Shown: piece after piece, positions 1,576 to 39,889 of the stretch
How the letters are laid out: each line of letters opens with the position of its first letter
How positions within the stretch are numbered: the first letter of the stretch is position 1
NCBI GenBank assembly: GCA_001805005.1
Contig: MHDO01000149.1
Span: 1-42,503, forward strand
Direction of reading: 5' to 3'
Source: Nitrospinae bacterium RIFCSPLOWO2_12_39_16
Lineage (GTDB): Bacteria > Nitrospinota > Nitrospinia > UBA9942
Length of the DNA: 42,503 nt
Made by a program: the position numbers and the translations under genes
Notes under the pieces: model-generated
What the model was told of the DNA's origin: nothing
Database searches by the model: none
Seen by the model: the letters and a program-made list of their open reading frames with translations, nothing else

Positions 1576-3702
1576 ATGAATAAAAAGCTAATATTAACCG
1601 CAGAGACACAGAGGCGCAGAGGAATATTTTTTGTTTTTAAGCCCATTAATGTTTTTCTCCGTGTCTCCGTGCCTCTGTGTTTTTTTCTTACATCTTGCTT
1701 CTTGTTGCCAACACTGTCATATGCACAGGAGCTTCCATATTCTGTCAGGAATATTACTGATGGAGGGCAGGTAGATTTTCATCCTGATTTTAGACCCGAT
1801 GGTAAGGAGCTCGTATTTGCATCCAGGAGTGAAATATCTAAAGACAATAAAGAGTTCTGGAATATCAGCCCCTATCATGTAAATTTATGGCTAATAGATT
1901 CTAATGGTAATAACAGGCGACCACTAACCTCTGGTAAAGTAATAGATTGTTATCCTTCCTTTACCCCTGATGGCGAGAAGATATTGTTTGTCTCAAACAG
2001 GGGAGGGCAGTGGGATATATGGTCTATAAAAACGGATGGCTCAAGCCTTACCCGTCTTACAGATAATCAGGATAAAGATTATTCTCCAAGGGCAACACAG
2101 GATGGAAAACATATTTTATTTTTCAGCACACCAACACATAGTGAAGCAGGTTATATTACAGAGAGTGTCTGGATTATGGATATGGATGGAAAAAATGCAA
2201 GGAGATTGACCTCCGGAGGCAAGGGTGATTGGTATCCATCTATGCATCCTGATGGAACAGAGATTATATTTGCGAGTATGAGACTTATCGGCGGGAGTCT
2301 CTGGACAATAGATATGGAGGGCAGAGATTACAAAAGGTTGACCTATGGGAAGGTATTGGAATTTTTCCCCAACTGGAGTCCTGACGGAACAAAAATCGCT
2401 TATATTTCAAGGAGGGAGCATGCATCCTTTGATACTGTAGGTGATACAAAAAATGACCCTCTTGAGATATGGGTTATGGATAGAGATGGGAGCAATAAAA
2501 GACAGTTAACAAAAAATATATCAGGAGGAATCTGGGATTCAAGATTTAACTTGAGAAAGCCATTAGACTTCATCAGTTATTATCATCTCTCATGGCACCC
2601 TGATGGCACAAAGCTCGCACTGACCACTTGGGAGAAGGAACAAAAGGGGAGTTACATAAGTATAATTGAATTTGATAAAGATACCCTAAATAGACTGCCT
2701 GTCTTGAATGAAGGGCCAGTTCTTCAATACACCCTGCTCGGAGAGAGGGAGCTTACTAAGGGGGAATGGGAGGATTTTGGTCCATCCTTCGGCCCTGATG
2801 GCAATGCGATAGTCTTTTCATCAAACAGAACAGGTAATTGGGATATCTGGAGTATAGGAGCGGATGGTGAAGGATTAAAACAAATAACAAATGAAACTGA
2901 TGATGATATTGCCCCTGTCTTCAGTCCTGATGGAAAGGAGATAGCATTTTTGAGGAGCCAGAAGCCAGAAGCCAGAAGCCAGAAGGATGAAACTGATTTT
3001 AAAAATCTTCAATCTTCAATCTTAAATCTTCAATATGATTTGTGGGTAATGAAGAGTGATGGGAGTGGTATGAGGAAGATTACAAAAAATATTCCTATTT
3101 TATCCTATCCTATATGGCACTCTGACGGTAAAGAGATTGCATTTGTATCAAAAGGAGATGAGGGGATTGGAATATGGAGATATGATGTTAATCGTCATAG
3201 TAGTAAGAAGGTCGCTATTATCTGGAATAGTGAACAAGAAACAGGAAGCAAGAAGCAAGAAGCAGGAAAAGGAAAATATTATCCATTTAATGAACTATTT
3301 CTTTACCGGATTGATTATAACAGGAAGGGTGATAAGCTCACATTTGAATCAAATCTATCAGGTAATGTGGAAATATGGGTAATGCATAGCGATGGAAGCA
3401 ATATGAGTAAGATTACAAGAGGCAATGAACCGCACTGGAATCCCGTTTTTAGTCCGGATGGAAAAATGATAGCTTATGCAACGGAGAAATTTGCCTCAAA
3501 TTTAGGACCTCCTTTCTGGCCTGCCTCTAATTATAATATCTGGCTGACAGATATAAATACAGGAAAAGAAGAAGCACTTACGGCTGAAGAGCAGACAGAT
3601 TGGAATCCTGCATGGAGTCCGGATGGAAAAAAAATCGCCTATGTCACTAACAGGTCAGGCGATTTTAAGCATAATAGTATATGGCTGTTGTATTTGAAAT
3701 AA
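1576..3702 (+). CDS. exported PD40/TolB-like double beta-propeller protein (subfamily A)
   Basis: AGGAGG 1561-1566 lies 9 nt before ATG 1576; ORF-track ATG 1567 abuts the SD and is less likely. Leader MNKKLILTAETQRRRG..VPLCFFLTSCFLLPTLSYA/QE has a charged then hydrophobic segment and an AxA-like site. PD40 blade motifs run throughout. Confidence 0.85.
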   Translation: MNKKLILTAETQRRRGIFFVFKPINVFLRVSVPLCFFLTSCFLLPTLSYAQELPYSVRNITDGGQVDFHPDFRPDGKELVFASRSEISKDNKEFWNISPYHVNLWLIDSNGNNRRPLTSGKVIDCYPSFTPDGEKILFVSNRGGQWDIWSIKTDGSSLTRLTDNQDKDYSPRATQDGKHILFFSTPTHSEAGYITESVWIMDMDGKNARRLTSGGKGDWYPSMHPDGTEIIFASMRLIGGSLWTIDMEGRDYKRLTYGKVLEFFPNWSPDGTKIAYISRREHASFDTVGDTKNDPLEIWVMDRDGSNKRQLTKNISGGIWDSRFNLRKPLDFISYYHLSWHPDGTKLALTTWEKEQKGSYISIIEFDKDTLNRLPVLNEGPVLQYTLLGERELTKGEWEDFGPSFGPDGNAIVFSSNRTGNWDIWSIGADGEGLKQITNETDDDIAPVFSPDGKEIAFLRSQKPEARSQKDETDFKNLQSSILNLQYDLWVMKSDGSGMRKITKNIPILSYPIWHSDGKEIAFVSKGDEGIGIWRYDVNRHSSKKVAIIWNSEQETGSKKQEAGKGKYYPFNELFLYRIDYNRKGDKLTFESNLSGNVEIWVMHSDGSNMSKITRGNEPHWNPVFSPDGKMIAYATEKFASNLGPPFWPASNYNIWLTDINTGKEEALTAEEQTDWNPAWSPDGKKIAYVTNRSGDFKHNSIWLLYLK
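1598..1707. repeat. family-2 leader palindrome (octamer arms) in PD40 gene 2
   Basis: Left arm CCGCAGAGACACAGAGGCGCAGAGG 1598-1622. Right arm TCTCCGTG TCTCCGTG CCTCTGTG 1656-1679 (the complementary octamer family). Then CTTGCTT CTTGTTG 1694-1707. Confidence 0.85.
2957..3034 (+). repeat. in-frame heptamer STR pair in PD40 gene 2: (GCCAGAA)x4 2957-2984, (AATCTTM)x4 3004-3034
   Basis: Read directly. Translates SQKPEARSQKDETDFKNLQSSILNLQ. Homologous position to 821-898. Confidence 0.9.
3234..3275 (+). repeat. in-frame heptamer STR (RCARGAA)x6 in PD40 gene 2
   Basis: ACAAGAA ACAGGAA GCAAGAA GCAAGAA GCAGGAA AAGGAAA. Translates EQETGSKKQEAGKGK. Confidence 0.85.
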
Positions 3703-3715
3703 GGGGGGATTTACC

Positions 3716-5965
3716 ATGAATAGAAAAATCAGAAGACAGAAGATAGAAGTCAGAAGTCAGACCTCTTGCCTCCGCAGGCTAAAGCCTACGGCTACTCATT
3801 GCTCATTGCTCATTGCTCATTGCTTCTTGTTACTCACACTGACACTGACACTTGCACTTAGCGATGTCTTTGCAGCATCAGAGGGAAGGCCTAATCACAT
3901 GTCGGAAGAGATATTGAAAACAAAGAAGGTTGTCGCAGTTCCCGAAGATGTTCAAGTTCCTTACACTGTCAGGAGGGTTACTGATGGCAGTTCTATTGAT
4001 TACCATCCTGAATTCAGCCCTGATGGAAAACAGATTGTGTTTATATCAAAAATAGATAATGTTGAGGCTAAGAAAAAAGGAGAGTTCTGGCACAAGACAC
4101 CTTATTATTTGAATCTATGGCTCATGGATTCGGATGGCAGGAATAAACGGCAATTAACATCCGGAGAATTTCAGGATTTTGCCCCAAAATGGACAGCAGA
4201 CGGGGAAAAGATATTTTTTGTCTCAAATCGCAGAAACGGCAGGTGGGATATATGGTCTGTAGATATAAATGGCTCAAACCTTGCCAGGATTACAGAGACT
4301 GAAGGAAATACAGGTTTATGGGAAAGGTCTCACTATCCTTTCCCTACACCTGATGGCAAAGGGATGGTTTTTATAATCTATAAAAAATCACATGGAAGTG
4401 TATGGTATAAGGATATGGAAAGCGGAAATATAAGGAGAATAACATCAGGAGGTTTTGGAGATGACTTTCCTATGGTTTCCCCTGATGGTAAAGAGATTGT
4501 CTTTAAAAGCACGAGACAGGGCAATGGAGATATATGGTCAATAGACAGCTCGGGGAAAAATTATAGGAGATTGACTTATGAGGATTATCCTGAGTTTTAT
4601 CCTGCATGGAGTCCGGATGGAACAAAGGTTTCTTATATTACAAACAAGGGAGGCGTCTTTGATGTGTGGCTCATGGATAGGGACGGCAGGCATAAAAAGA
4701 AATTGACAAAATATCTGTCAAAGGGGGCATGGGGATTAAGGTTTGATTATAATGACCTCACTGAGGCGGGATATTACCATGTTTCATGGCATCCTGATGG
4801 AACAAAGCTTGCTTTAACTACATGGGAGCCTGATAAAAAAGAGAGTTATTTGACAATGCTTGACTTTGGAAAGGATATTAATAAGGCGGCTGAGGAATTG
4901 CCCGAAGAAAAAGAAACCCTTCCTGAATATACTCTCATTGGAGAGAAAGAACTTACAGGCGGCGGAAATTATGATGATTTTGGTCCATCCTTCAGCCCTG
5001 ATGGTAAAACAATAATCTTTGCTTCCAATAGGAAGGGGAACTGGGATATCTTGAGCATAGGTGTTGATGGTGAAGGATTGCGGCAGATAACAAAAGATGC
5101 AGGTGATGAAGTTGCTCCAGTATATAGCCCTGATGGGAAGGAGATAGCATATCTTAAAGAAGCAAATCCTAAATCCGAAATCCTAAATCCTAAATATGAT
5201 ATCTGGGTAATGAATAGTAACGGGAGCGAGGCAAGGAAGGTTACGAATGGTATTGAGGTGATTTCCTATCCAGCATGGCATTCTGATGGTAAAGAGATTG
5301 CCTTTGTGGTAAAGGGAGATAGCGGACCAGAGATACGATTGCTTTCCCTTGACAAAAGGGGACAATCTCCTCAGGCGGTTGTTTCTATATGGGATACTGA
5401 AAAACCCAATCCTGTGATGTTTCCATTTACAAAGGAGGGAGAGAAAGAGGAATTTACCCCTCAGGAGATAGCAAAGATGAAGGAATTATTCCCGAATATA
5501 AAATTAGGGATGGGTGGATTAACTCCATTTACAAAGGGTGAAACGATTGATGTCCCTTATCCACTGAATGAATTTCTTTATAGAGTTGATTATAGTGCTA
5601 CAGGCGACAGAATTATATTTGAGTCTAATAAGACCGGTAATATTGATATATGGTCGGTAAGGAGGGATGGGACAGAATTGAACCGTATTACTAAAAAGGA
5701 TGGTCCTCATTTGAATCCTGTTTTCAGCCCTGATAATAAAAAGATTGCATATGCCCGCAGAAAATTAGATTTAAGCTCCTATAATGAAGTGAATTATAAT
5801 ATATGGATTGCTGATGCTGAAACAGGTGAAGAGATGCCGATTAATGGAGAGGAGCAGACAGACTGGAATCCTGCTTTCAGTCCTGATGGCAAAAAAATTG
5901 CCTATGTCACCAATCGCTCAGGGGAGTTTAAGCATTATAATATATGGATGCTGTATTTGAAATGA
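3716..5965 (+). CDS. exported PD40/TolB-like double beta-propeller protein (subfamily B)
   Basis: G-run 3703-3708 lies 7 nt before ATG 3716. Leader MNRKIRRQKIEVRSQ..HCSLLIAHCFLLLTLTLTLALSDVFA/AS. Subfamily-B signatures GEFWHKTPYYLNLWLMDSDG and LWERSHYPFPTPDGKGM. Same C-terminal ..NIWMLYLK*. Confidence 0.85.
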   Translation: MNRKIRRQKIEVRSQTSCLRRLKPTATHCSLLIAHCFLLLTLTLTLALSDVFAASEGRPNHMSEEILKTKKVVAVPEDVQVPYTVRRVTDGSSIDYHPEFSPDGKQIVFISKIDNVEAKKKGEFWHKTPYYLNLWLMDSDGRNKRQLTSGEFQDFAPKWTADGEKIFFVSNRRNGRWDIWSVDINGSNLARITETEGNTGLWERSHYPFPTPDGKGMVFIIYKKSHGSVWYKDMESGNIRRITSGGFGDDFPMVSPDGKEIVFKSTRQGNGDIWSIDSSGKNYRRLTYEDYPEFYPAWSPDGTKVSYITNKGGVFDVWLMDRDGRHKKKLTKYLSKGAWGLRFDYNDLTEAGYYHVSWHPDGTKLALTTWEPDKKESYLTMLDFGKDINKAAEELPEEKETLPEYTLIGEKELTGGGNYDDFGPSFSPDGKTIIFASNRKGNWDILSIGVDGEGLRQITKDAGDEVAPVYSPDGKEIAYLKEANPKSEILNPKYDIWVMNSNGSEARKVTNGIEVISYPAWHSDGKEIAFVVKGDSGPEIRLLSLDKRGQSPQAVVSIWDTEKPNPVMFPFTKEGEKEEFTPQEIAKMKELFPNIKLGMGGLTPFTKGETIDVPYPLNEFLYRVDYSATGDRIIFESNKTGNIDIWSVRRDGTELNRITKKDGPHLNPVFSPDNKKIAYARRKLDLSSYNEVNYNIWIADAETGEEMPINGEEQTDWNPAFSPDGKKIAYVTNRSGEFKHYNIWMLYLK
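3730..3860. repeat. family-1 leader cassette, copy in PD40 gene 3
   Basis: Purine arm CAGAAGA CAGAAGA TAGAAGT CAGAAGT 3730-3757. Core hairpin CCGCAGGC-TAAA-GCCTACGG 3772-3791. (CTCATTG)x4 3795-3822. CACTGA-type hexamers to 3860. Confidence 0.9.
5164..5195 (+). repeat. in-frame heptamer STR (AAATCCK)x4.5 in PD40 gene 3
   Basis: AAATCCT AAATCCG AAATCCT AAATCCT AAATA. Translates NPKSEILNPK. Same loop as 821-898. Confidence 0.9.
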
Positions 5966-5980: not shown

Positions 5981-8143
5981 ATGAACAAAAACCTAATATT
6001 AACCACAGAGACACAGAGGCGCAGAGGAAAAAACAACTTAAAGAAATCTCTGTGTCTCAGTGCCTCTGTGGCTTTTTCTTGCATCTTGCTTCTTGCATCT
6101 TGCTTCCTGTCACCGACACTGGCACTTGCACTGGAAGAGGAACTTCCATACTCCATCACAGATATTACATCTGGAGAGGCAGTAGATTTTTACCCTGAGT
6201 TCAGCCGTGATGGAAAACAGATTGTTTTCTCCTCTAAGCCATTGGACGGTAGTTATTTCACTGATATGCATCTGTGGATTATGGATGCCGATGGAAATAA
6301 CAGACGGCAGATAACAGATAAGAGTGCGATGTATCTTCAGCCTACCTTTACACCTGATGGAGAAAAGGTTGTTTTTATCTCCAATTTGGAAGATGGACTA
6401 TGGGATATATGGTCAATGAAAATTAACGGTTCAGGGCTTACCCGACTGACAAAGGACAACCAGAAAGAGTTTTTTCCGATTGTTACCTCTGATGGTAAAA
6501 ATGTGATTTTCATAGGAAGATATTTTGGAACGGATAGTGTATTTATTATGGATACTGATGGCAAAAATCTGAAAAGATTGACTTCCGGTGGAAATGGAGA
6601 TTCCTTTCCTGCGGTTTGTCAGGATGGAAAGGATATTATTTTTTCCACAACGAGGCTTGGTAATAGCAATCTCTGGACAATAGACAGAGAAGGGAAGATA
6701 TATAATCGTCTTACCTTTGAAGATACAATAGAGTTTTCACCATCCTGCAGCCCTGATGGAAAAAGGATTGCCTATGTTGCCATAGAGGGAGGGGCTAAGA
6801 CTTATAGCAAGGCACGGAAGGGATTTGAGTTTAAAGAGATATCCTATAGGGAAAGGTCATTTGATATGTGGTTGATGAACAAGGATGGAAGCGGCAGGAG
6901 GCAGATTGCAAGAAATATATTTGAGACGGGACCGAGTATGAGGTTGTTCAAGTCCGTAGATGTTATAGAAGGGATTAACTACTATCACATCTCATGGCAT
7001 CCTGATGGTAAAAAGATGATATTGAGCAGATGGAATAAGGACAAAGCGGGGAGTCGTATCAGTATCTTGTCATTAGATAATGAAGTTGTTGAAAAATTAC
7101 CAATCACCGAAACACCGCTTTCTGAGTATTCTCTTCTCAGTGAAAAAGACCTTACCGGTGGGGATTGGGATGACATCACCCCAAGTTTTGCCCCGGATGG
7201 CAAGGGTATAATATTTGCCTCTAACAGAAATGGCGGGTGGGATATATGGAGGCTTTGGATTGCGGATTGCGGATTGCGGATTGCGGATTGCAAATCAGAG
7301 TTTGATGATGCAAAGCTGGAACAGCTAACAAAAGGGGATGATGATGAGTTGGCTCCAGTATATAGTCCTGATGGCAAAAAGATAGCTTATTTACGAAATA
7401 CGAAAGACGAAATACTAAATACGAAATATGATATATGGTTAATGAAAACTGACGGGAGTAGTGCGAGGCAGGTTACAAATGGGATTTCTGTTCTTTCCTA
7501 CCCTGCATGGAAACCTGATGGGAAAGAGATTGTCTTTGTGTCTGAAGGTAATGAACAAGCCCCTGAAATATGGGGATATAATATCGCTGAGGGGAGTCTT
7601 AAAAATATTGCATCCATTAAGGACGCTTTACTTCTTGGCTCCAGATTAAATAAGAAAACTAATATTGAACTTATCAGTGACAGGCGAAATATAAATACTT
7701 CTAATCCGCTATCAATAGGTGCAGGTGGTATCTATCCATTTAATAAATTTCTTTATCGTATAAATTATAGTCCTCGCGGCGACAGAATTATATTTGAACT
7801 GGATATGAAAGATAGCATAGGTATATGGACTATTAATAGTGATGGTAATGGTCTTACTCCTGTTATGACAGAGGATTCTCTCTACTGGACGCCGGTCTTC
7901 AGCCCGGATGGCAGAAAAATAGCCTATTCAAAAAAGGCAGGTAAACAGTTTGCCCCGATATATTGGACGGATTACAACATCTGGATAGCGGATGTTGATA
8001 GCGGTGAGAAGATGATGATTAATGGGGAAGAGCAGATAGACTGGTTTCCATCATGGAGCCCTGATGGAAAGAAAATAGCTTATGTTACTAATCGTTCGGG
8101 AGATTTCAGCCGCTTTAATATATGGCTGTTGTATTTGAAATAA
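5981..8143 (+). CDS. exported PD40/TolB-like double beta-propeller protein (subfamily A)
   Basis: GGGAGG 5966-5971 lies 9 nt before ATG 5981; the ORF-track start 5972 is TTG. Leader MNKNLILTTETQRRRG..ASCFLSPTLALA/LEEE. PD40 blade motifs. Ends ..FNIWLLYLK*. Confidence 0.85.
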   Translation: MNKNLILTTETQRRRGKNNLKKSLCLSASVAFSCILLLASCFLSPTLALALEEELPYSITDITSGEAVDFYPEFSRDGKQIVFSSKPLDGSYFTDMHLWIMDADGNNRRQITDKSAMYLQPTFTPDGEKVVFISNLEDGLWDIWSMKINGSGLTRLTKDNQKEFFPIVTSDGKNVIFIGRYFGTDSVFIMDTDGKNLKRLTSGGNGDSFPAVCQDGKDIIFSTTRLGNSNLWTIDREGKIYNRLTFEDTIEFSPSCSPDGKRIAYVAIEGGAKTYSKARKGFEFKEISYRERSFDMWLMNKDGSGRRQIARNIFETGPSMRLFKSVDVIEGINYYHISWHPDGKKMILSRWNKDKAGSRISILSLDNEVVEKLPITETPLSEYSLLSEKDLTGGDWDDITPSFAPDGKGIIFASNRNGGWDIWRLWIADCGLRIADCKSEFDDAKLEQLTKGDDDELAPVYSPDGKKIAYLRNTKDEILNTKYDIWLMKTDGSSARQVTNGISVLSYPAWKPDGKEIVFVSEGNEQAPEIWGYNIAEGSLKNIASIKDALLLGSRLNKKTNIELISDRRNINTSNPLSIGAGGIYPFNKFLYRINYSPRGDRIIFELDMKDSIGIWTINSDGNGLTPVMTEDSLYWTPVFSPDGRKIAYSKKAGKQFAPIYWTDYNIWIADVDSGEKMMINGEEQIDWFPSWSPDGKKIAYVTNRSGDFSRFNIWLLYLK
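6003..6112. repeat. family-2 leader palindrome (octamer arms) + heptamers in PD40 gene 4
   Basis: CACAGAGA CACAGAGG CGCAGAGG 6004-6027. TCTCTGTG TCTCAGTG CCTCTGTG 6047-6070. CTTGCAT CTTGCTT CTTGCAT CTTGCTT CCTGTCA 6078-6112. Confidence 0.9.
7257..7291 (+). repeat. perfect (GGATTGC)x5 inside PD40 gene 4
   Basis: Five identical heptamers. Translates (R)LWIADCGLRIADC(K). Confidence 0.95.
7393..7427 (+). repeat. in-frame heptamer STR (ACKAAAK)x5 in PD40 gene 4
   Basis: ACGAAAT ACGAAAG ACGAAAT ACTAAAT ACGAAAT. Translates NTKDEILNTK. Same loop as 821-898. Confidence 0.9.
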
Positions 8144-8151
8144 TTAATGAT

Positions 8152-8227
8152 AGTTTCATTAGTTTTATTAGTTGGATTGGTTAAAAGCAATAAAACTAAT
8201 AAGACCAATGCAACCAATAAAACAAAT
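8152..8227. repeat. intergenic palindrome of 9-mers
   Basis: AGTTTCATT AGTTTTATT AGTTGGATT 8152-8178, facing AAAAGCAAT AAAACTAAT AAGACCAAT GCAACCAAT AAAACAAAT 8183-8227 (AATAAAACT is the reverse complement of AGTTTTATT). Confidence 0.85.
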
Positions 8228-8245: not shown

Positions 8246-10438
8246 ATGTATATTAAAAAACTGACACAGTCACTAACACTCACACTGTCATTATCACTAT
8301 TATTAATTCTTGCCGGTGAGGTCTTTGCGGACACGCAAAGTATTTCAGATATCCCTTATAATGTCATTAGAATTACTGATGGGAGTTCCAAAGATTATCA
8401 GCCTGAGTTCAGTCCTGATGGGAAGCAGATTGTATTTATTAAAGAAATAAGTAATAGTGAAGGCATAAAAAGTGGTGAATTCTGGCACAAGACACCATAT
8501 TACATGAACCTATGGCTCATGGATTCGGATGGTAAGAATAGGAGACAATTAACATCAGGAGAGGTGCAGGATTTTGCTCCAATGTTTACAACGGATGGGA
8601 AAAGTATCATTTTTGTATCAAATCGTAAACATGGTAATAGATGGGATATATGGTCAATTAATGTAGATGGCTCAAACCTTACCAGAATAACAGAAATAGA
8701 AAAGAATGAGCTATGGGAGAGAATATTTTATCCTTCACCTACACCTGATGGTAAAGGGATGCTTTTCGTAGTTTATCAAGAAGGTCACCCAAGTGTATGG
8801 TTAATGGACATGGAAAGTAGGGCTGTGAAAAGAATAACATCAGGAGGAACTGGAGACGATACTCCTGTGATGTCCCCTGATGGTAAAGATATCGTCTTTA
8901 AAACTTACAGACTCGGAGCTGGTGGTATATGGTCAATAGATAGGTCAGGAAAAAATTACAAGAGATTGACATACAAGTATTATAGGGAGTTTTACCCTGC
9001 ATGGAGTCCGAATGGAACAAAGATATCTTATGTTACTTATGAAAATGGCATTTTTGACCTATGGATAATGGATAGGGATGGCAGAAATAAAAAGAGGCTG
9101 ATAAAATCTATTCCACTGAAACCAAGTGATTTCTGGAGTGAGCATCCTATCGAATCTGGATATTATCGTGTCTCATGGCACCCTTATGGTACAAAGCTTG
9201 CCTTAACCCTTTGGGACCAAGATAAAAAAGAAAGCTATTTAACATTGTTTGATTTTGAAAAAGATATTACCATGGTATCGGAAAGCTTGTCTGATGAAAC
9301 CGAGTCGCTTAAAGATTATACGCTGATTGGTGAAAAAGATATCTCCGGCGATGGGAATTGGGATGATTTTGGTCCGTCTTTTAGTCCTGATGGAAAAACA
9401 ATACTATTTGCTTCTAATAGAAAAGGAAACTGGGGCATATGGAGTTTGGGAGCCGATGGCGAAGGATTAAAACAAATAACAAAAGGGAGCGGTGATGACA
9501 TTGCCCCTGTTTTTAGTCCTGATGGCAAAGAGATAGCTTTTTTGAAGAAGACAGAAGATAAGAAGTTAAGAAGTTTAGAAGATGAGAAACTGAAAAGCAC
9601 AACCTCTCAACCTCTCAACCTCTCAACTTCTGTTATTTCTACCTATGACCTCTGGATAATGAATAGTGATGGGAGTGTGGCGAGACAGGTTACTAAAGGT
9701 ATTTCAATTATATCCTATCCTGCATGGAATCCGAATGGGAAAGAGATTGCCTTTATTACAAAAGGTGATAAAGGTCATGAAATACAATTTATATCCCTTA
9801 ATAAAGATAGTGTGGGAGGTGTTTCTCAAGCTTACACTGTGAACCGACTTATCTCTATATGGGATATTGAAAATGATAATTCTGCAATCTCTCTATTCGA
9901 AAAAAACGAAGATTTTACTTCTAATAAAAAGTATAAAATAGCAAAGATGCAACATTTTTTACCAGAAGTGAAAAACCCTGCATTTATTTTATCAAGATTT
10001 ATAAAAGGAGAGGCGGTTACTTTATCCTATCCATTAAAAGAATTTCTTTATAAAGCCAGTTATAATACCTCCGGTGATAAGATTATATTTGAGTCCAATC
10101 GGACAGGGAACATAGATATATGGTCGGTAAAAAGGGATGGGACAGAACTGACACGAATTACGAAAGGGAATGGACCTCATTTGAATCCAGTTTTTAGCCC
10201 AGATAATAAAAAAATTGCCTTTGCCCATCGTAAAGAAATAGGGGTAAGCATTAGCAATACAACAAACTATAATATATGGATTGCCGATGTTCAAACAGAT
10301 GAGGAGATGATGATTAACGGTGAGGAGCAGACAGACTGGAATCCTGTATTTAGTCCTGATGGAAAAAAAATTGCCTATGTTACCAATCGTTCAGGAGATT
10401 TTAAGCACTATAACATATGGATGCTGTATTTGAAATAA
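8246..10438 (+). CDS. exported PD40/TolB-like double beta-propeller protein (subfamily B)
   Basis: AGGGGAG 8231-8237 upstream of ATG 8246. Classical signal peptide MYIKKLTQSLTLTLSLSLLLILAGEVFA/DT. GEFWHKTPYYMNLWLMDSDG signature. Ends ..NIWMLYLK*. Confidence 0.9.
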   Translation: MYIKKLTQSLTLTLSLSLLLILAGEVFADTQSISDIPYNVIRITDGSSKDYQPEFSPDGKQIVFIKEISNSEGIKSGEFWHKTPYYMNLWLMDSDGKNRRQLTSGEVQDFAPMFTTDGKSIIFVSNRKHGNRWDIWSINVDGSNLTRITEIEKNELWERIFYPSPTPDGKGMLFVVYQEGHPSVWLMDMESRAVKRITSGGTGDDTPVMSPDGKDIVFKTYRLGAGGIWSIDRSGKNYKRLTYKYYREFYPAWSPNGTKISYVTYENGIFDLWIMDRDGRNKKRLIKSIPLKPSDFWSEHPIESGYYRVSWHPYGTKLALTLWDQDKKESYLTLFDFEKDITMVSESLSDETESLKDYTLIGEKDISGDGNWDDFGPSFSPDGKTILFASNRKGNWGIWSLGADGEGLKQITKGSGDDIAPVFSPDGKEIAFLKKTEDKKLRSLEDEKLKSTTSQPLNLSTSVISTYDLWIMNSDGSVARQVTKGISIISYPAWNPNGKEIAFITKGDKGHEIQFISLNKDSVGGVSQAYTVNRLISIWDIENDNSAISLFEKNEDFTSNKKYKIAKMQHFLPEVKNPAFILSRFIKGEAVTLSYPLKEFLYKASYNTSGDKIIFESNRTGNIDIWSVKRDGTELTRITKGNGPHLNPVFSPDNKKIAFAHRKEIGVSISNTTNYNIWIADVQTDEEMMINGEEQTDWNPVFSPDGKKIAYVTNRSGDFKHYNIWMLYLK
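9546..9626 (+). repeat. in-frame STR pair in PD40 gene 5: AGAAG at period 7-8 x6 (9546-9592), (CCTCTCAA)x3 (9603-9626)
   Basis: Read directly. Translates ..KKTEDKKLRSLEDEKLKSTTSQPLNLST.. Same loop as 821-898. Confidence 0.85.
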
Positions 10439-12673: not shown

Positions 12674-12738
12674 AGATTGAAGATTGAAGATTAACAGGTG
12701 GAAAATTTAGTATTCAATATTCAGTATTCAATAGTCAA
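12672..12738 (+). repeat. intergenic heptamer STRs (GAAGATT)x3 12672-12692 and (TATTCAR/TAGTCAA)x4 12711-12738
   Basis: Read directly. The first unit overlaps stop codon TGA 12671-12673. Confidence 0.9.
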
Positions 12739-12758
12739 TTTTTATGGAGGGATTTACC

Positions 12759-15707: not shown

Positions 15708-15736
15708 ATAAGAATATTGATGGATAAGAAAGATTT

Positions 15737-15986: not shown

Positions 15987-15996
15987 GAGAAGAGAT

Positions 15997-16267: not shown

Positions 16268-16274
16268 TATTGAT

Positions 16275-16306
16275 TTGACTCTCTGATATTCTCCTCTTTG
16301 ACACTA
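16275..16306. repeat. inverted octamer arm TTGACTCT CTGATATT CTCCTCTT TGACACTA (right flank of DUF4160/DUF2442 pair)
   Basis: TTGACTCT is the exact reverse complement of AGAGTCAA. TTTGACACT is close to the reverse complement of AGTGTCAGA. Arm-to-arm match is imperfect (~60% by eye). Confidence 0.7.
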
Positions 16307-17121: not shown

Positions 17122-17140
17122 AAATATCTTGAGAGTGTTA

Positions 17141-30248: not shown

Positions 30249-30268
30249 AAAATTCATAATGCTCAACG

Positions 30269-30310
30269 ACTTTATAAACTTTATAACCTTATAACTTTAT
30301 AGCTTATATT
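30269..30310 (+). repeat. intergenic 8/9-mer STR (ACTTTATAA)x2 CCTTATAA CTTTATAG CTTATATT before gspF
   Basis: Read directly in the 64-nt spacer 30249-30312. Confidence 0.85.
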
Positions 30311-30312
30311 CT

Positions 30313-31544: not shown

Positions 31545-32012
31545 ATGAAAGGGTGGCTTTTAAAAATCCAAAATCCAAAATCCAAAATCAAAAATAATGA
31601 GAGGGGTTTTACTCTGATAGAGCTATTAATAGTACTCATAATCCTTGGTCTGCTCGCTGCGCTGGTAGTGCCGAGATTTTTTGGTCATGTTGGAAAATCT
31701 AAACTCAAGGTAGCAAAAATGCAGATAGAACTCTTTGGCACTGCTCTGGATGCGATGCGTTTGGATATAGGGAGATATCCTGCAACCGATGAGGGTTTGG
31801 CATTGTTACGGACGAATACAGGAAATGTGGATAGGTGGAGGGGTCCATATATACCCAAAGATATACCACTTGATCCATGGAGAAGACCCTATGCATACAT
31901 TTCTCCAAGTGAATATGGAGAATATGAGATCATATCCTATGGTGCCGATGGTGCGGCTGGTGGCATAGGGGAAGACCAAGATATTGTCAACTGGAAAGAC
32001 ATTGAGGAATAA
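31545..32012 (+). CDS. gspG: type II secretion major pseudopilin GspG
   Basis: AAGGAG 31533-31538 lies 6 nt before ATG 31545. Prepilin site ..NNERG/FTLIELLIVLIILGLLAALVVPRF. GspG signatures AKMQIELFGTALDAMRLDIGRYP, WRGPYI, DPWRRPY, SYGADG. Confidence 0.9.
   Translation: MKGWLLKIQNPKSKIKNNERGFTLIELLIVLIILGLLAALVVPRFFGHVGKSKLKVAKMQIELFGTALDAMRLDIGRYPATDEGLALLRTNTGNVDRWRGPYIPKDIPLDPWRRPYAYISPSEYGEYEIISYGADGAAGGIGEDQDIVNWKDIEE
31562..31593 (+). repeat. octamer STR (AAAATCCA)x3 AAAATCAA inside the GspG prepilin leader
   Basis: Encodes KIQNPKSKIK upstream of the G/F cleavage site. Confidence 0.9.
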
Positions 32013-32556
32013 TAAGATTTACGAATTAAGAATTGCAAATCTAAAATTTAAAATTGCAAAACATGAATCGATTAGGGGTTTTACTATGGTGGAACTCCTT
32101 GTAGTTCTGTTCCTCATAGGGCTGATGCTTTTGATTGCTGTGCCCTCTCTCCTGCATACCGTAGAATCTCTTAAATTCAAGGCAACTGCCCGTCAGATAG
32201 TCTCAACACTTAAGTTTGCCAGAAATACCGCAGTATTTAAACAGAGGTATCAGGTTGTTGGTTTTGATATAGATAATAATCTCTACTTCTTAGGGGGACA
32301 GGGAATTGCTGGGTATGAAGATACTCTTTCAAAGAGTATAAAAACTTTTAAGCTCCCTTCAGATGTTTCTATTAAATCCATGGAGATGGCGGAAGATAGG
32401 ATTGAGTCAGGAAAAGGTAATATCCTGTTTTATCCTGATGGGAGTTCCAGCAGCGGGGCAATCATAGTAAAAAATAAGAAGACTGATGAAGGTTTTAGAA
32501 TTGAAGTAGATGTCTTTACCGGTCTTACACATGTAACCTTTGATAGTGTTAGTTAA
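31984..32556 (+). CDS. gspH: type II secretion minor pseudopilin GspH-like
   Basis: Prepilin site ..SIRG/FTMVELLVVLFLIGLMLLIAVPS. ARQIVSTLKFARNTAV. The start is uncertain: 31984 is TTG and overlaps gspG, and there is no in-frame ATG before the cleavage site. Confidence 0.7.
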   Translation: MSTGKTLRNNKIYELRIANLKFKIAKHESIRGFTMVELLVVLFLIGLMLLIAVPSLLHTVESLKFKATARQIVSTLKFARNTAVFKQRYQVVGFDIDNNLYFLGGQGIAGYEDTLSKSIKTFKLPSDVSIKSMEMAEDRIESGKGNILFYPDGSSSSGAIIVKNKKTDEGFRIEVDVFTGLTHVTFDSVS

Positions 32557-33020: not shown

Positions 33021-33091
33021 ACAAGAAGAAAGATGTAAGAAGCAAGATACAAGATTTTTTCTTGTTTCTTGCCTCTGACCTCTTGCTTCTT
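33021..33091. repeat. intergenic heptamer STR palindrome between gspI and gspJ
   Basis: ACAAGAA GAAAGAT GTAAGAA GCAAGAT ACAAGAT 33021-33055, TTTTT, CTTGTTT CTTGCCT CTGACCT CTTGCTT 33061-33088. Core stem GCAAGATACAAG / CTTGTTTCTTGC is 11/12 complementary. Confidence 0.9.
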
Positions 33092-33782: not shown

Positions 33783-33878
33783 GTGTCAGTGCAAGTGACA
33801 GTGTTTAAAAAAAATAAAAGCAGTATCATCGCGGGTGTCAGTAAAAAAGTACTTACACTGAAAACTGACACTGACACT
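33783..33878. repeat. hexamer STR palindrome at the 5' end of gspK
   Basis: GTGTCA GTGCAA GTGACA GTGTTT 33783-33806 against ACACTG AAAACT GACACT GACACT 33855-33878. Confidence 0.8.
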
Positions 33879-34886
33879 TTAAATGAGAAAGGTGTTGCGC
33901 TCATCCTGATTTTGTGGGTTGTCATCTTTCTGGGTGTTATTGTGAATACCTTTGCATGGATGGTTCGCACTGAGGTTCAGGCAGTTGGTAATTTTAAGGA
34001 AGAGATAAATGCTTATTACCTTGCCAGAGGTGGTTTTCAGCGGACTATCATGGAGTTGTTAAAGAGTCAAGGAAGCACTGACAGGGAGCCTCTAAAAGAA
34101 GGGTTAAAGTTGGATGGCAGGGTTAACATGGTCCATTTTCAAGATGGACATGCAGAGGTTAGAATAATTGATGAAAGTGGGAAGATAGATATAAATGTGG
34201 CAAGTAGAGATGATATTATCAGGGTTCTTACTGCTCTGGATATTGAGGTTGAAGATAAGGATGTAATAGCAGATTCTATACTTGACTGGATTGATGAGAA
34301 TAACTTTCATAGACTCAACGGGGCTGAGGACGATTATTACAGGTTGCTTCCTAAACCATATCGTGCGAAAAATGAACCACTTGTCACAGTGGATGAACTC
34401 TTGTGGGTCAGGGGTATTACCCCGAAAATATTCTATAATACTGTGATAGACCGAAGTTCTGACCCTGAACTTGTTTCATGGGAAGCAGAAGCTCAGAGTG
34501 TAGTGGAGGAAAATCTATCAGGAGAAGAAGAAATATTCAGGGCAGGGATGGAGAGTGTCTTTACAGTGTTTACCGGTTCTAATAAAATAAATATTAATAC
34601 TGCACCTTTACCCCTCCTTTTATCTATCCCTACTATTGACGAGGTCAAGGCTGAAAAAATAATCACTATAAGGGAAGAAAGCCCCTTTCGTGATATGAGT
34701 GACTTAATAAGGGCAGTTACATTACCCCCTGAATTTGGAAAATTTATTAGTTTTTCTTCCTCAGGGATATATACTATAGAGGTTGTAGGAAAATTAAATG
34801 GAAGCCATGTAAGGCGGTCCTTTAAATCGGTAATCAAAATCAAGGGGAAGACTGATTATGAGATACTTTATTGGAAGGAAGGATAA
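33783..34886 (+). CDS. gspK: type II secretion minor pseudopilin GspK-like
   Basis: ..NEKGVALILILWVVIFLGVIV, DESGKIDINVAS, PLVTVDELLWVRGIT, NINTAPLPLLLSIPTIDEVKAEKIITIREESPFRDMSDL (HhH-like), all typical of GspK. GTG start at 33783; the first ~30 codons cross an STR palindrome. Confidence 0.8.
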   Translation: MSVQVTVFKKNKSSIIAGVSKKVLTLKTDTDTLNEKGVALILILWVVIFLGVIVNTFAWMVRTEVQAVGNFKEEINAYYLARGGFQRTIMELLKSQGSTDREPLKEGLKLDGRVNMVHFQDGHAEVRIIDESGKIDINVASRDDIIRVLTALDIEVEDKDVIADSILDWIDENNFHRLNGAEDDYYRLLPKPYRAKNEPLVTVDELLWVRGITPKIFYNTVIDRSSDPELVSWEAEAQSVVEENLSGEEEIFRAGMESVFTVFTGSNKININTAPLPLLLSIPTIDEVKAEKIITIREESPFRDMSDLIRAVTLPPEFGKFISFSSSGIYTIEVVGKLNGSHVRRSFKSVIKIKGKTDYEILYWKEG

Positions 34887-36971: not shown

Positions 36972-36985
36972 ACTAAACACTTTTT

Positions 36986-37824: not shown

Positions 37825-39837
37825 ATGAACAAAAAAAAGACTACCCAATTGAATTGTACATTTTTATTTTGTATCTTGTTTCTTGTATCTTGCCTCTTGC
37901 TTTTTACTCCTGTGGAGTTTTATGCACAGGAAAAACCCTTACAATTACAGGTCAATCCTCCTCAAAAAAATATAGAAGATAAACTTGGTAAAACTTCTGC
38001 CAAAAACATAGTCCTTAATTTTGATAATGCTGATATTTATGAAATTATAACTCTCGTATGTGATTTTTTAAAAATGGATTATATTATAGACCCAAGGGTT
38101 AGGGGAATGGTAAATATTCACACCACAGGAGAGATAACGCCGGACAACCTCTTTGACATCTTTACCACGATACTCAAGGTATCAGGGGCTGCAATAATCA
38201 AGGAAGGGGATATATATCATATAGTTCCAGCTACAGAGGCAAAGGGGATGCTTCTTATACCCAGGACAGACCAGGAGATACCTCCACCTGGTGATGAGAT
38301 AATATTTCAGGTAATCCAGCTTATGTATGTTCAGGCAAAGGAATTTATTAACATTATAAGACCCTTTACAACACAAGGTGCAGTACTAACTTCCTATGAC
38401 AGGGGGAACACTATTTTACTCATTGACTTTGCGAGTAATGTGAATAAGGTGTTAGAGATAATAAAGGTTATGGATGTAAGTATTTTTAGTGGTGTAGAGA
38501 TGAAGCTCTTTCCTATGAAGGAGGCTGATGTTGAGGATATAACAAAGGAGATGGAGAAACTCTTTGCATCGCTGAATGTATCTACCAAATCCGCTATATC
38601 GGTAGGGATAAATTTTATCTCCATTCCGAGACTGAATTCTCTTTTAGTTATGACATCCATACCTCAGATTATGGGGGAGGTGGAGAGGTGGATTGAGGTG
38701 TTGGATAAAGTGGAGAGCGGGGAAGAGATAAAGACATATATCTATCAGGTGAGGAATGGCATTGCCACCGATCTTACTGATATCTTGAATGAGATATTTG
38801 GAAGGAAAGGAATGGTATCAAAAAGGGCAGATGAGCTTAAAAAAAGAGCTGAGGCAGAAAAGAAACCAGCAGGTGAGCAAAAGGAGAGGACTGTCGCAAC
38901 AGAAAGACAACCTGCAGCTTCAGGAATTGGTGACAGTGCAGTGGAATTCATACCATATTCTATTACCAATACAATAATAATCAAGGCGGCTCTAAAGGAT
39001 TATAAGATGATAAAAGAAATGCTTGATGACCTTGATATTGCTCCCCGTCAGGTAATGATAGGGGTGTTTATTGCAGAGGTATCCCTGAATGACGATACAA
39101 GATTTGGGATAGATTATGCCCTGCGGAATGGAAAATTAGGCGAAGGGATATATAGTACTGCTGTTGGGACATCACTCGGTCTCTCTAAGGCTGGCACCAT
39201 AGCAGCGGGTGGACTTACCGCATCTGTAATAAGGGACGATTTCAGTGCTACCTTTAATGCACTGGCAAGCGAAGGCAGACTTAACATTCTTGCCTCTCCA
39301 CATATTCTTGCCAGAGATGGCAAAGAAGCAAGCATCAATATAGGCGATGAAGTCCCCATCATAACAAGTAGAACTATTACTGATGTTAGAGAATCTATAG
39401 CTATTGAGAGGAGAAATACTGGTGTTTTACTTAAGGTAACGCCTCATATTAATACTACAGGGTTGGTAACATTTGACCTTACCCTTGAGCTCAGCAATGC
39501 TGCATCGGCTGTACTGGCTGGTTCAACTGATATCAGGATATTTCAGCGCAAGGCAAATAACAGTATGGTGGTGCAGGATGGACAATCTGTACTTATAGGC
39601 GGGCTTATAAACGAACAGGAAGAGGATAGTATAACTAAGGTCCCTTTCCTTGGAGATATATTTCTTATAAAACACCTCTTCAGATATAAGTCAAAGACTA
39701 AAAAGAAAAATGAGCTGATTCTTCTTATTACACCGAGGGTGATTAGAAACTCTCAAGAGGCACGGGACATTACTACTGAATTCAGTGAAATGGTCAAGGG
39801 ACTTCAGGATAAGATTAAAGGGCGTATAAAAGAGTAA
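37825..39837 (+). CDS. gspD: type II secretion outer-membrane secretin GspD
   Basis: Signal peptide MNKKKTTQLNCTFLFCILFLVSCLLLFTPVEFYA/QE (ATG 37825; ORF-track GTG 37801 is an alternative). N0-N3 modules. Secretin core ..ILASPHILARDGKEASINIGDEVPI.., VPFLGDIFLIKHLFRYKSKTKKKNELILLITPRVI. Confidence 0.9.
   Translation: MNKKKTTQLNCTFLFCILFLVSCLLLFTPVEFYAQEKPLQLQVNPPQKNIEDKLGKTSAKNIVLNFDNADIYEIITLVCDFLKMDYIIDPRVRGMVNIHTTGEITPDNLFDIFTTILKVSGAAIIKEGDIYHIVPATEAKGMLLIPRTDQEIPPPGDEIIFQVIQLMYVQAKEFINIIRPFTTQGAVLTSYDRGNTILLIDFASNVNKVLEIIKVMDVSIFSGVEMKLFPMKEADVEDITKEMEKLFASLNVSTKSAISVGINFISIPRLNSLLVMTSIPQIMGEVERWIEVLDKVESGEEIKTYIYQVRNGIATDLTDILNEIFGRKGMVSKRADELKKRAEAEKKPAGEQKERTVATERQPAASGIGDSAVEFIPYSITNTIIIKAALKDYKMIKEMLDDLDIAPRQVMIGVFIAEVSLNDDTRFGIDYALRNGKLGEGIYSTAVGTSLGLSKAGTIAAGGLTASVIRDDFSATFNALASEGRLNILASPHILARDGKEASINIGDEVPIITSRTITDVRESIAIERRNTGVLLKVTPHINTTGLVTFDLTLELSNAASAVLAGSTDIRIFQRKANNSMVVQDGQSVLIGGLINEQEEDSITKVPFLGDIFLIKHLFRYKSKTKKKNELILLITPRVIRNSQEARDITTEFSEMVKGLQDKIKGRIKE
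37867..37901 (+). repeat. heptamer STR TTTTGTA TCTTGTT TCTTGTA TCTTGCC TCTTGCT in GspD signal peptide
   Basis: Encodes FCILFLVSCLLL. Confidence 0.9.
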
Positions 39838-39845
39838 ATTTAAAA

Positions 39846-39889
39846 AGTGTCATTGTCAGTGAATAGTGTCAGTAAAAGACACTCACACT
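39846..39889. repeat. hexamer STR palindrome in spacer before gspE
   Basis: AGTGTCATTGTCAGTGAATAGTGTCAGT 39846-39873, AAAA, GACACTCACACT 39878-39889. Core stem AGTGTC 39865-39870 / GACACT 39878-39883. Confidence 0.75.

Follow-up and report, generated by a model that had tools for sequence, protein, structure and literature searches.

Export leaders of bacteria are usually short, about 18–30 residues for signal peptides and about 5–10 for prepilin leaders. The extended signal peptide region (ESPR) of autotransporters and two-partner secretion (TPS) proteins is a conserved protein motif (Pfam PF13018), which forms an N-terminal extension before the classical n-, h- and c-regions and gives export leaders of about 50 residues. 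At the DNA level, repetitive extragenic palindromic (REP) elements consist of GTAG and then an imperfect palindrome of 20–40 nt. Here I describe a stretch of 42,503 nt from Nitrospinae bacterium RIFCSPLOWO2_12_39_16 (contig MHDO01000149.1 of assembly GCA_001805005.1; the whole stretch is called the window), in which short tandem arrays with units of 6–9 nt crowd the 5′ ends of genes and are probably read as parts of export leaders.

Repeats that are translated or lie near start codons have been described in other bacteria. In the opa genes of Neisseria, CTCTT pentamers in the leader-coding region cause slipped-strand phase variation (PMC3960869). The Rickettsia palindromic elements (RPEs) are palindromic repeats lying in frame within genes; they are translated at tolerant positions and vary between orthologues (PMC10969869). 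Heptamer simple sequence repeats (SSRs), in arrays of 2–6 or more copies, are over-represented in many bacteria, sometimes as inverted pairs and with rapid turnover of length and sequence among close relatives, for which polymerase slippage has been proposed (PMC4692102), and TAACTGA heptamers are found near start codons in Beggiatoaceae (PMC4679880).

All long open reading frames (ORFs) of the window lie on the + strand, and its G+C content is about 39%. Pfam and gene-caller records give six tandem PD40/TolB-like beta-propeller genes, six FGE-sulfatase-domain genes, rhodanese and WD40 genes, one class I methyltransferase gene and one SNase-like gene, and the window also holds a type II secretion system (T2SS) operon, gspF-G-H-I-J-K-L/M-D-E. 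With Tandem Repeats Finder (TRF; period 6–9, at least 2.5 copies, score at least 30), 48 arrays were found. Period 7 accounts for 31 of them, period 8 for 10, period 6 for 4 and period 9 for 3. Twenty shuffled sequences, with dinucleotides kept within 150-nt blocks, gave 0–4 arrays of any period from 6 to 9 (mean about 1.4). The repeat units named in a first-pass annotation of this DNA were all recovered by TRF and in the sequence itself, at most a few bases from where they had been placed. In the 30 gene models, the first 210 nt together make up 15% of the window and contain 27 of the 48 array midpoints (3.8-fold enrichment, binomial p=4e-11). Seven arrays are intergenic (2.2-fold), and the remaining 79% of the window holds the other 14 (0.37-fold depletion). 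The first-pass annotation had proposed a genome-wide test of such 5′-end enrichment, and this is the result for the window. At least one array lies near the start in 17 of the 30 genes. The number becomes 16, in line with the "about 16 gene starts" reported before, if the GspJ start is moved from TTG 33062 to ATG 33092, because the array 33059–33091 then becomes intergenic. Since gene callers start GspJ at ATG 33092, this array is most likely untranslated.

The unit is 7 or 8 nt in 41 of the 48 arrays and thus not a multiple of three. A period of 7 together with unit identities of up to 100% must come from a process acting on DNA, not from selection on amino acids. Period-7 arrays far above chance and near starts recall the cyanobacterial short tandemly repeated repetitive (STRR) sequences, GGGAATC of Xanthomonas and TAACTGA of Beggiatoaceae. 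However, heptamer SSRs elsewhere are mainly intergenic with one or a few dominant units, whereas most arrays of the window lie in 5′ ends, for the most part in DNA that codes for leaders, at least 25 distinct units are present, and the two arms correspond to the n- and h-regions of signal peptides. As reported before, a purine-rich arm is followed by a pyrimidine-rich arm. TRF detects both in eight leaders (starts 1576, 3716, 5981, 10454, 12759, 14769, 21000 and 27553), in which purines make up 73–85% of the first arms and 15–27% of the second. In gene 13720 both arms are visible by eye, the purine arm having been missed by TRF. The leaders are listed below; cassette A is a 129-nt module treated later, arrows mark candidate cleavage sites, and z compares folding with that of shuffled sequences (negative, better than shuffles).

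1576–1725, + strand: leader of PD40/TolB-like protein 1 (MNKKLILTAETQRRRG...TLSYA↓QE), AAGGAGG 9 nt before ATG 1576; hairpin of (CGCAGAGG)x3 at 1599–1622 and (TCTCCGTG)x3 at 1656–1680 (z −4.0 for 1598–1682)
3716–3874, + strand: leader of PD40 protein 2, cassette A, ending VFA↓A; (CAGAAGA)x4.6 at 3730–3761, short hairpin CCGCAGGCTAAAGCCTACGG, (CTCATTG)x4.3 at 3795–3824, (ACTGAC)x3.5 at 3832–3852 (z +1.7, no hairpin in the folding comparison)
5981–6130, + strand: leader of PD40 protein 3; (CACAGAGG)x3 at 6004–6027 pairs with CTCTGTG... at 6048–6071, then (TCTTGCA)x3.9 at 6077–6103 (−42 kcal/mol; z −5.0 for 6003–6071)
8246–8329, + strand: short leader of PD40 protein 4, repetitive in the hydrophobic core alone (period-6/18 ACTGAC-type, LTLTLSLSL, 8260–8298)
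10454–10597, + strand: leader of PD40 protein 5, cassette A with altered second arm; (CAGAAGA)x4.6 at 10468–10499, (TTGCTTT)x5.4 at 10533–10580 (z +1.1)
12759–12911, + strand: leader of FGE-sulfatase-domain protein 1, cassette A; arrays at 12773–12804, 12838–12867 and 12874–12895
13720–13959, + strand: leader of FGE protein 2, 80 codons, gene callers start at 13720; nested hairpin 13770–13925, outer arms CACAGAG-type, inner arms GGAGAAAT/TCTCCATC (−63.6 kcal/mol; z −7.0 for 13770–13919)
14769–14930, + strand: leader of rhodanese protein 1; (AGAAGTC)x4.3 at 14784–14813, (GCTTTCA)x4.9 at 14836–14868 (z +2.1)
17090–17221, + strand: leader of FGE protein 3; n-region GTGTCAGTGTCAGC pairs with (ACTAAC)x4.7 at 17176–17203 (LTLTLTLTL core)
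21000–21137, + strand: leader of class I methyltransferase; (CAGAAGC)x5.7 at 21016–21055, (CTCTGTT)x5.7 at 21064–21103 (z −2.2 for 21016–21103)
21846–21926, + strand: leader of 508-aa protein, 27 codons; only the core is repetitive, (TGCTTAC)x5.3 at 21876–21912
24430–24552, + strand: leader or anchor of FGE protein 5; inverted repeat AACCACGAAGAAGACGA / TCGTGTCCTTCGTGG at 24445–24527 (weak, z −0.75)
25275–25457, + strand: leader of TPR-FGE lipoprotein, 60 codons, lipobox LLAG↓C; CACAGA... / TCTCTGTG arms at about 25320–25415
27553–27678, + strand: leader of SNase-like protein; (GCAAAAA)x2.9 at 27599–27618 and its exact complement (TTTTTGC)x3 at 27634–27654 (z −2.5 for 27592–27660)
28065–28256, + strand: leader of WD40 protein 2, 64 codons; hairpin AACCACGAAGTATACGAAGG / CTTCGCGTTCTTCGTAG at 28104–28187 (z −2.8)
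31545–31604, + strand: GspG prepilin leader (MKGWLLKIQNPKSKIKNNERG↓F) with (AAAATCC)x4.7 at 31563–31595
31984–32076, + strand: GspH leader; (AAATTTA)x2.7 at 32037–32055, before RG↓FT
33783–33890, + strand: GspK N-terminus; GGTGTCAGTGCAAGT pairs with (ACTGAC)x4.5 at 33851–33878
37825–37923, + strand: GspD signal peptide, core made of (TATCTTG)/(TTGTATCTTGCCTC) repeats at 37865–37899; the NCBI model P0315 begins MNKKK

Thus, core T2SS genes carry arrays, as had been noticed for GspG and GspD. Apart from cassette A, a second leader family begins with MNKNLILTTE..., encoded by ...TTAACCAC(A/G)(A/G)AG arrays (1576, 5981, 24430, 28065 and partly P0019, an allele described below).

Are these arrays translated? 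In GspG, no in-frame ATG, GTG or TTG lies between ATG 31545 and the prepilin site G↓FTLIEL, and GGAG is found 6 nt upstream of the ATG. Since GspG needs a leader ending in G↓F and has a single start, the (AAAATCC)x4.7 array would be read as KIQNPKSKIKN. Elsewhere, translation could otherwise begin in frame only at TTG or GTG codons within the hydrophobic arm, which lack a Shine-Dalgarno-like motif, and starting there would remove the charged n-region. GGAGG-type motifs lie 7–9 nt 5′ of the ATGs at 1576, 3716, 5981, 10454 and 12759. It had been claimed that a Shine-Dalgarno motif precedes the ATG opening the element and that in most genes no in-frame ATG separates the element from the mature domain, in agreement with these observations. 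Translation of the arrays in leaders appears well supported.

The translated arrays look like export signals. In a heuristic scan, every array-bearing leader of the Sec or lipoprotein type has a net-positive n-region (net charge +2 to +8), a hydrophobic core (best 12-residue hydropathy at least 2.16) and an AxA-like site or lipobox. The candidate cleavage sites are SYA↓Q, VFA↓A/D, ANA↓N, VSA↓D, VLA↓E, IYA↓S and LLAG↓C; GspG and GspH have a prepilin site G↓FT instead of AxA. The scan agrees with the earlier assignment of the purine arm to the n-region and of the pyrimidine arm to the h-region, followed by the cleavage site. Thus, the array-bearing leaders are probably cleaved and the proteins exported. 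Tat signal peptides were considered because of RR/RRR runs and were rejected, since the S/T-R-R-x-F-L-K motif is absent. Unusual leader length is shared with ESPR, but the latter is a conserved protein motif, while the leaders here are repeat DNA, and a Pfam search gave no ESPR match among the window proteins. The palindromic, amphipathic repeat coding elements called PARCELs (PMC2996958) are 25-residue amphipathic repeats and are not comparable.

The methyltransferase gives an independent expectation. An exhaustive search revealed that its relatives in other organisms have ordinary signal or lipoprotein leaders of 20–40 residues before the same conserved domain, so that a leader is expected precisely at the position of the arrays. 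De novo creation of a signal peptide on this gene was thus rejected, export being ancestral in the family. N-terminal signal or lipoprotein leaders are likewise present in more than 100 distant homologues of the methyltransferase (window 21000–21800). Such a periplasmic-looking methyltransferase family is odd because S-adenosylmethionine is cytoplasmic.

It was also assessed whether genes for exported proteins are preferred over cytoplasmic ones, a check that had been proposed with the first-pass annotation. The sample was small and consisted of the window, its upstream (L027) and downstream (L001) flanks (about 30 kb in total) and the syntenic locus L029 of a metagenome-assembled genome (MAG; GCA_016194325.1). 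Arrays are present in 18 of 41 genes with a hydrophobic N-terminus and in 1 of 11 others (Fisher p=0.04), and this single gene is itself leader-bearing, its score lying just below the cut-off. In the flanks and the MAG, arrays were again found on leader-bearing genes and on none of ten genes with cytoplasmic N-termini. For instance, a 256-aa cytochrome c7 downstream has AAAGCTC and CTTTCAC arrays in a lipoprotein-like leader, and the leader of a 1193-aa PD40 protein upstream has GTGTCA and TACTGCC arrays. In the downstream flank, holA, rpsT, dksA, one gene of the radical-SAM type and one YfiH-like (Cu-oxidase_4) gene have no arrays, and in the upstream flank the DUF559 and Uma2 genes have none.

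The DNA of the window recurs at 99.5–99.98% identity in many JGI and ENA assemblies, and some ENA scaffold names suggest an origin from the Rifle aquifer study. The labels of sister MAGs differ ("Nitrospinae bacterium RIFCSP...", "Nitrospirae bacterium RBG_16_43_11" and, in one record, Thermodesulfovibrionia). An assembly artefact was ruled out, since the same arrays appear in independent JGI, ENA and NCBI assemblies. Another relative, L007, is identical to contig MHEI01000005.1 (Nitrospirae bacterium RBG_16_43_11) wherever both overlap.

Comparison among relatives revealed that arrays change in length by whole units. The GspG array has 1.7 AAAATC(C/A) units in L029 (MKWGLFKIKNNERG↓F), 3.7 in L023 (three ENA contigs) and 4.7 in the window, and the differences are exact unit multiples; the leader has 13 residues in L029 and 20 in the window. 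The alleles show an array that grew in place from a single resident AAAATCA motif, with no insertion. The arms of the methyltransferase leader have 2.5 units in L029 and 5.7 in the window, corresponding to a 36-nt indel. One-unit changes shift the reading frame. In the 3.7-unit GspG allele, ATG 31545 is out of frame and its frame ends after about 21 codons, the only in-frame start being a GTG 14 nt past the Shine-Dalgarno motif. In a rhodanese allele lacking one AGAAGTC unit (L024, one contig), the in-frame start shifts into the upstream gene. These one-unit frame shifts had not been described in the first-pass annotation. In more distant orthologues, the length differences mostly preserve the frame (21 nt, 36 nt).

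Leaders are also replaced in genes that are otherwise about 99% identical. The allele P0019 of PD40 protein 2 is nearly identical past the leader and has a different leader, composed of CACAGAG and AAGAAGAT/CAACCTCT elements. In this allele, the only one mapped at DNA level, the (ACTGAC)n array marks the right-hand breakpoint, and the upstream spacer is the one that precedes FGE protein 1 in the window. This spacer (12671–12739) precedes the replaced leader in L025 and L026. In the rhodanese orthologue of L007, a CAGAAGA/CTCATTG cassette A stands in place of the AGAAGTC/GCTTTCA leader. Three leaders were found for the 508-aa protein: 27 codons in the window, 50 aa in L029 and cassette A in L022. 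In L029, the orthologue of the SNase-like protein has an ordinary non-repeat signal peptide, that of WD40 protein 2 a 17-aa leader of (TTCTTGC)x3.9, that of FGE protein 5 an unrelated plain leader, and that of the TPR-FGE protein reads as a 21-aa leader. In the window itself, PD40 protein 4 with its short leader has a mature N-terminus nearly identical to that of the cassette-A-bearing PD40 protein 5. It had been proposed that signal peptides may be created, resized or swapped by repeat dynamics, with the presence or absence of elements in orthologues as a check. Resizing is seen in GspG and the methyltransferase and swapping in the alleles and orthologues (leaders differ in L007, L022 and L029), while in the one family tested for creation, that of the methyltransferase, the leader is a replacement and no new creation.

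Cassette A was found on unrelated genes. It is 129 nt long and consists of GG(A/G)GG-TTTACC-ATGAA-, (CAGAAGA)n, a short hairpin, (CTCATTG)n and CTTCTTG. Its copies are 78–94% identical on PD40, FGE-sulfatase and rhodanese genes in three or four genomes, and it also occurs on the 508-aa family; those of FGE protein 1 and PD40 protein 5 are 92% identical over 129 nt. Thus, swapping between genes, suggested earlier, is seen in three aligned unrelated families and a fourth. The exact core has only 2–3 copies per related MAG, solely in this gene cluster, and a strict pattern of the hairpin matched 8 stretches in 6 incomplete MAGs, 1–3 in each. The hairpin has a GCAGGC/GCCTGC stem in the window (3766–3790, 10504–10528 and 12809–12833), and a form CGCAGGCTAAAGCCTGC continuing into CTACTCATT occurs in L017 (7812–7837), L019 (138–163) and L020 (4605–4630). 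I also considered whether the cassette A spacer buffers the frame by being open in three frames; this was rejected because of a TAA in the +1 frame.

The CTCATTG array is not confined to this lineage. A metagenome scan for (CTCATTG)x3 gave at least 88 distinct arrays. The matches listed come from contigs of 36–71% GC (L030–L109, for example L032, L041, L045, L058, L078, L086, L103 and L105) and are mostly outside genes, for example before nusA or before a livG-like gene. In many cases the inverse array (CAATGAG)n stands at most about 60 nt ahead, so that hairpins with heptamer arrays as arms result. Among the 88 listed, 31 lie within 70 codons of a possible start, 41 have no downstream long ORF and only one lies more than 70 codons into a long ORF. 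The units TTCATTG, CTAATTG, CCCATTG and GGATTGC co-occur with CTCATTG in the metagenome contigs; GGATTGC lies next to CTCATTG arrays in the unrelated contig L051. No paper containing CTCATTG/CAATGAG-type repeat strings was found in a literature search.

Arrays are not limited to leaders. One surface loop of the six PD40 paralogues has arrays in five cases and is an empty site in the sixth. The first-pass annotation did not include such gene-internal elements.

817–898, + strand: loop element of the 1193-aa PD40 protein, in frame, (AGAAGCC)x4.7 then (AATCGTC)x4.4
2956–3034, + strand: loop element of PD40 protein 1, (AGCCAGA)x4.3 then (AATCTTC)x4.4
5164–5195, + strand: loop element of PD40 protein 2, single array (AAATCCT)x4.6
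7392–7428, + strand: loop element of PD40 protein 3, single array (TACGAAA)x5.3
9545–9631, + strand: loop element of PD40 protein 4, (AAGAAGAT)x5.6 then (CAACCTCT)x4
11816–11890, + strand: array-free loop of PD40 protein 5 (KSSKELLSA), the empty site
3235–3274, 7257–7291 and 29294–29330: other gene-internal arrays found by TRF

The loop arrays are unavoidably translated. In the PD40 protein 1 allele P0002, a AAGAAGAT/CAACCTCT element replaces the loop element at 2956–3034. In-frame presence or absence of palindromic repeat DNA thus varies between paralogues, as in the RPEs, and one allele carries a different element. However, RPEs form families of about 150 bp with conserved peptides and are inserted as units, while here tandem 7–8-mers of many sequences lie mostly in export leaders rather than in metabolic enzymes and at least one array has grown in place. 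Inspection by eye of the loop and leader sites gave no shared termini or target duplications, in contrast to RPE and miniature inverted-repeat transposable element (MITE) families. The array at 7257–7291 is (GGATTGC)x5 inside PD40 protein 3, translated as WIADCGLRIADC; on the opposite strand it opens an ORF of 130 aa (6985–7377).

The untranslated copies reported in spacers were also recovered, as follows.

8151–8227, no strand: intergenic hairpin of period-9 arrays TAGTTTCAT and TAAAACCAA (TRF, inverted-repeat search)
12671–12739, no strand: intergenic (TGAAGAT)x3 and (TATTCAA)x4, 5′ of cassette A (TRF)
30230–30305, no strand: intergenic inverted repeat with (ACTTTATA)x4.5 (TRF, inverted-repeat search)
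33022–33091, no strand: intergenic (CAAGATG)x4.9 then (TTCTTGC)x4.7, directly before the called GspJ start 33092

What process would give this distribution? With moderate confidence, I favour the view that arrays born by slippage are kept at permissive sites, translated in leaders and then shuffled between genes. Slipped-strand expansion of short resident motifs would be the origin, as seen in GspG and presumed for the rest. The arrays persist where constraint is weak, that is, in spacers, in one PD40 surface loop and, mostly, in leader-coding 5′ ends. Over 21 nt, a heptamer array passes through all three reading frames; CAGAAGA would give QKTEDRR, a net-positive extended n-region, and CTCATTG would give LIAHCSL, a hydrophobic core. 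The c-region and cleavage site would not be part of the repeats and would remain attached to the mature protein. Comparison shows that arrays lengthen or shorten in place, single-unit changes shifting the frame of the start codon against that of the mature protein, and that whole 5′ cassettes with Shine-Dalgarno motif, ATG and both arrays are exchanged between genes, probably by recombination. The enrichment in leaders would mainly be a tolerance filter; hydrophilic arrays may fit n-regions and loops, and hydrophobic arrays only leader cores. The near-absence of (CTCATTG)n deep in ORFs among the matches listed is what such a filter predicts for a repeat encoding hydrophobic residues. A dedicated export-module element would then be unnecessary, and frame-shifting alleles would be a by-product, maybe used as a switch.

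Several points weigh against slippage followed by tolerance. The leader assignment is a simple hydropathy and motif heuristic. Many array-bearing leaders have 41–80 residues with n-regions of 16–40, while typical Sec leaders are much shorter, and the leader of gene 4005 in L007 contains two separate hydrophobic stretches, an awkward fit for a signal peptide that is to be cleaved. One-unit alleles occur in only 2 of 19 protein clusters (90% clusters from consensus assemblies), and the arrays are invariant across 14 near-clonal assemblies; thus, slippage occurs but is not frequent. The filter explains neither why purine-then-pyrimidine pairing is found in loops, where the n/h architecture is not needed, nor why CTCATTG/CAATGAG recurs, among the matches listed, in contigs of such different GC content. 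Finally, since the gene set lies on a single strand, gene orientation is inseparable from replication orientation; the sole counter-example among the matches listed is one minus-strand gene in L098.

The one-unit alleles provide a link to phase-variable leader repeats, rare as they are. The arrays might be a contingency switch, in which gain or loss of one unit toggles exported proteins, including a T2SS pseudopilin, as the CTCTT repeats do in Neisseria opa. As in opa, pyrimidine-rich tandem units whose length is not a multiple of three lie in the leader-coding 5′ region, between the start codon and the mature part. Exact one-unit deletions exist in natural consensus assemblies at GspG and rhodanese, and the targets are exported or surface proteins like those of known contingency loci (PMC3960869). 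In contrast to opa, however, the units are 7–8 nt, of many sequences and usually in purine/pyrimidine pairs, and they are spread over many unrelated genes of a free-living aquifer bacterium. The arrays are short (3–6 units) and often imperfect, which lowers slippage rates, and they are mostly invariant between strains, as stated above. Loop and spacer arrays are incapable of such toggling, and the differences in distant orthologues mostly keep the frame. I regard such a switch as unlikely. I am similarly doubtful about a wider reading, in which the heptamer cassettes would be a portable, recombining export-leader module gating secreted proteins and the inverted arrays an undescribed, widespread class of elements feeding the leaders.

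A mobile palindromic element of the REP, MITE or RPE kind, landing in frame by means of, for example, a REP-associated tyrosine transposase (RAYT) or an IS200-type enzyme, is improbable in my judgement. An argument for it is cassette A, whose hairpin is followed by CTAC; the reverse strand reads GTAG-CCG(C/T)AGGC-TTTA-GCCTGCGG and has the usual REP layout of GTAG and an imperfect palindrome, for this one hairpin only. A 26-nt degenerate pattern of the hairpin continuing into CTACTCATT was also found alone and non-coding in MAGs of Planctomycetota, Thermodesulfobacteriota and Thermodesulfovibrionia, where about 0.02 matches are expected by chance. Besides, the AAGAAGAT/CAACCTCT element occurs both in a loop (9545–9631) and in a leader (P0019), presence and absence differ among orthologues, and in-frame palindromic insertion has a precedent in Rickettsia (PMC10969869). 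However, the GspG array grew stepwise from a resident motif and not by insertion, common termini are absent from the many units and target-site duplications are not visible, one half of the pairs does not form palindromes, and copies of the exact cassette core are few and confined to this cluster. Neither a transposase nor, in particular, a RAYT was seen in the roughly 75 kb examined. Unlike REP elements and bacterial interspersed mosaic elements (BIMEs), cassette A is intragenic, translated and of low copy number, and flanking tandem arrays are not a REP feature. The first-pass annotation had inferred a genome-wide REP-like element; at least 25 units, growth in place and 2–3 core copies per related MAG leave this unsupported.

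The pairing of the arms bears on a further possibility, that the arrays act in the RNA and the peptide is secondary; mRNA hairpins after the start might slow elongation, aid targeting or bind a protein recognising heptamers. Six leaders do have strong structure 20–30 nt past the start (z −2.2 to −7.0), the well-folding types being CACAGAG, GCAAAAA and CACGAAG, and in Beggiatoaceae a role in the regulation of translation has been proposed for heptamer repeats beside start codons (PMC4679880). In contrast, the CAGAAGA/CTCATTG leaders at 3716 and 10454, the AGAAGTC/GCTTTCA leader at 14769 and the loop at 810–905 fold no better than shuffles (z +1.1 to +2.1), so the most widespread cassette and the AGAAGTC leader in fact fold worse. 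Palindromic arms, as first described, are thus true of about half of the paired elements and untrue of CAGAAGA/CTCATTG and AGAAGTC/GCTTTCA. At gathering thresholds, Rfam gave no match at any element (the sole hit was a cobalamin riboswitch in an unrelated locus), and orthologues lack such structures. An RNA-level role as the main function seems very improbable.

The least probable view is that the elements are untranslated intergenic or 5′-untranslated structures (REP-like stabilisers, attenuators or terminators) with true starts downstream and ORFs running through them only for lack of stop codons in the units: the same kinds of element do occur in the four spacers, some very stable hairpins are followed by T-runs (1665–1690, 6048–6085) and some callers start in or after the pyrimidine arm (GspD 641 aa, FGE protein 5 267 aa, WD40 957 aa), but GspG and GspH require a leader ending in G↓F without a downstream start, the other downstream starts lack the Shine-Dalgarno motifs that precede the upstream ATGs and lose the n-region, loop elements are necessarily translated, the protein families need a signal peptide here, and a consensus promoter and terminator scan gave no excess over shuffles, although its loop limit of 3–8 nt is blind to long-loop hairpins and makes the scan uninformative.

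Some other features of the locus were observed. From about 16003 (L007 9669) rightwards, L007 and the window share 99.9% identity; leftwards the identity is only 82–86% and gene content differs, with an extra PDDEXK_3 fragment and other PD40 lengths. Position 16003 or so marks a recombination breakpoint within the cluster. At 16142, in the spacer 5′ of the rhodanese gene 16324, all 8 other covering assemblies have an extra 11 nt (AATTTTTTAAA). Between the rhodanese genes (about 15720–16280), other assemblies have called DUF4160 (88 aa) and DUF2442 (93 aa) genes, a couple possibly resembling a toxin-antitoxin-like pair amid the exported-protein cluster. A 126-nt periodicity at 18413–19959 (12 copies, about 71% identity) corresponds to the WD40 repeats of a 979-aa WD40-rhodanese fusion; L029 has a 282-aa rhodanese without the WD40 part at this position. 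Multihaem cytochrome genes (c7-type, MtrC-like) flank the T2SS/exported-protein cluster in both genomes (L001 11866–15153; L029 1022–7363), and several of their leaders also bear arrays. In GspD, allele P0324 has a 19-residue tandem duplication, KGMLLIPRTDQEIPPPGDE (window about 38200–38300), and in allele P0322 (39837) the C-terminus is altered; it now ends in GKMSNEQ, as encoded by a CAATGAG-type array. One scaffolded assembly has an N run exactly at the intergenic ACTTTATA repeat (window 30259–30311; L004 317–418), indicating that such repeats break assemblies. Gene callers also disagree on the starts of genes of this cluster: GspD has 641 or 670 aa, rhodanese 298, 300, 302 or 313 aa, and FGE protein 3 305, 307, 317 or 322 aa.

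Each ingredient described here is already known, and it is the combination that is new. In a single environmental lineage, arrays occur on many exported genes that are unrelated to one another, their pairs map onto n- and h-regions, one cassette shared between genes contains ribosome-binding site and start codon as well, and one of the targets is a T2SS pseudopilin. Signal peptides are commonly viewed as gene-specific, slowly drifting sequences. Here, the dynamics of DNA repeats appear to make and remake n-regions and cores, fast enough to be seen among the strains of a single aquifer population. This would supply a mechanism for fast turnover of leaders, for unusually long leaders and for the transfer of a start codon with its leader between unrelated genes. 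If the one-unit alleles are switches, contingency-locus biology would extend to environmental bacteria and to a core gene of a secretion machine.

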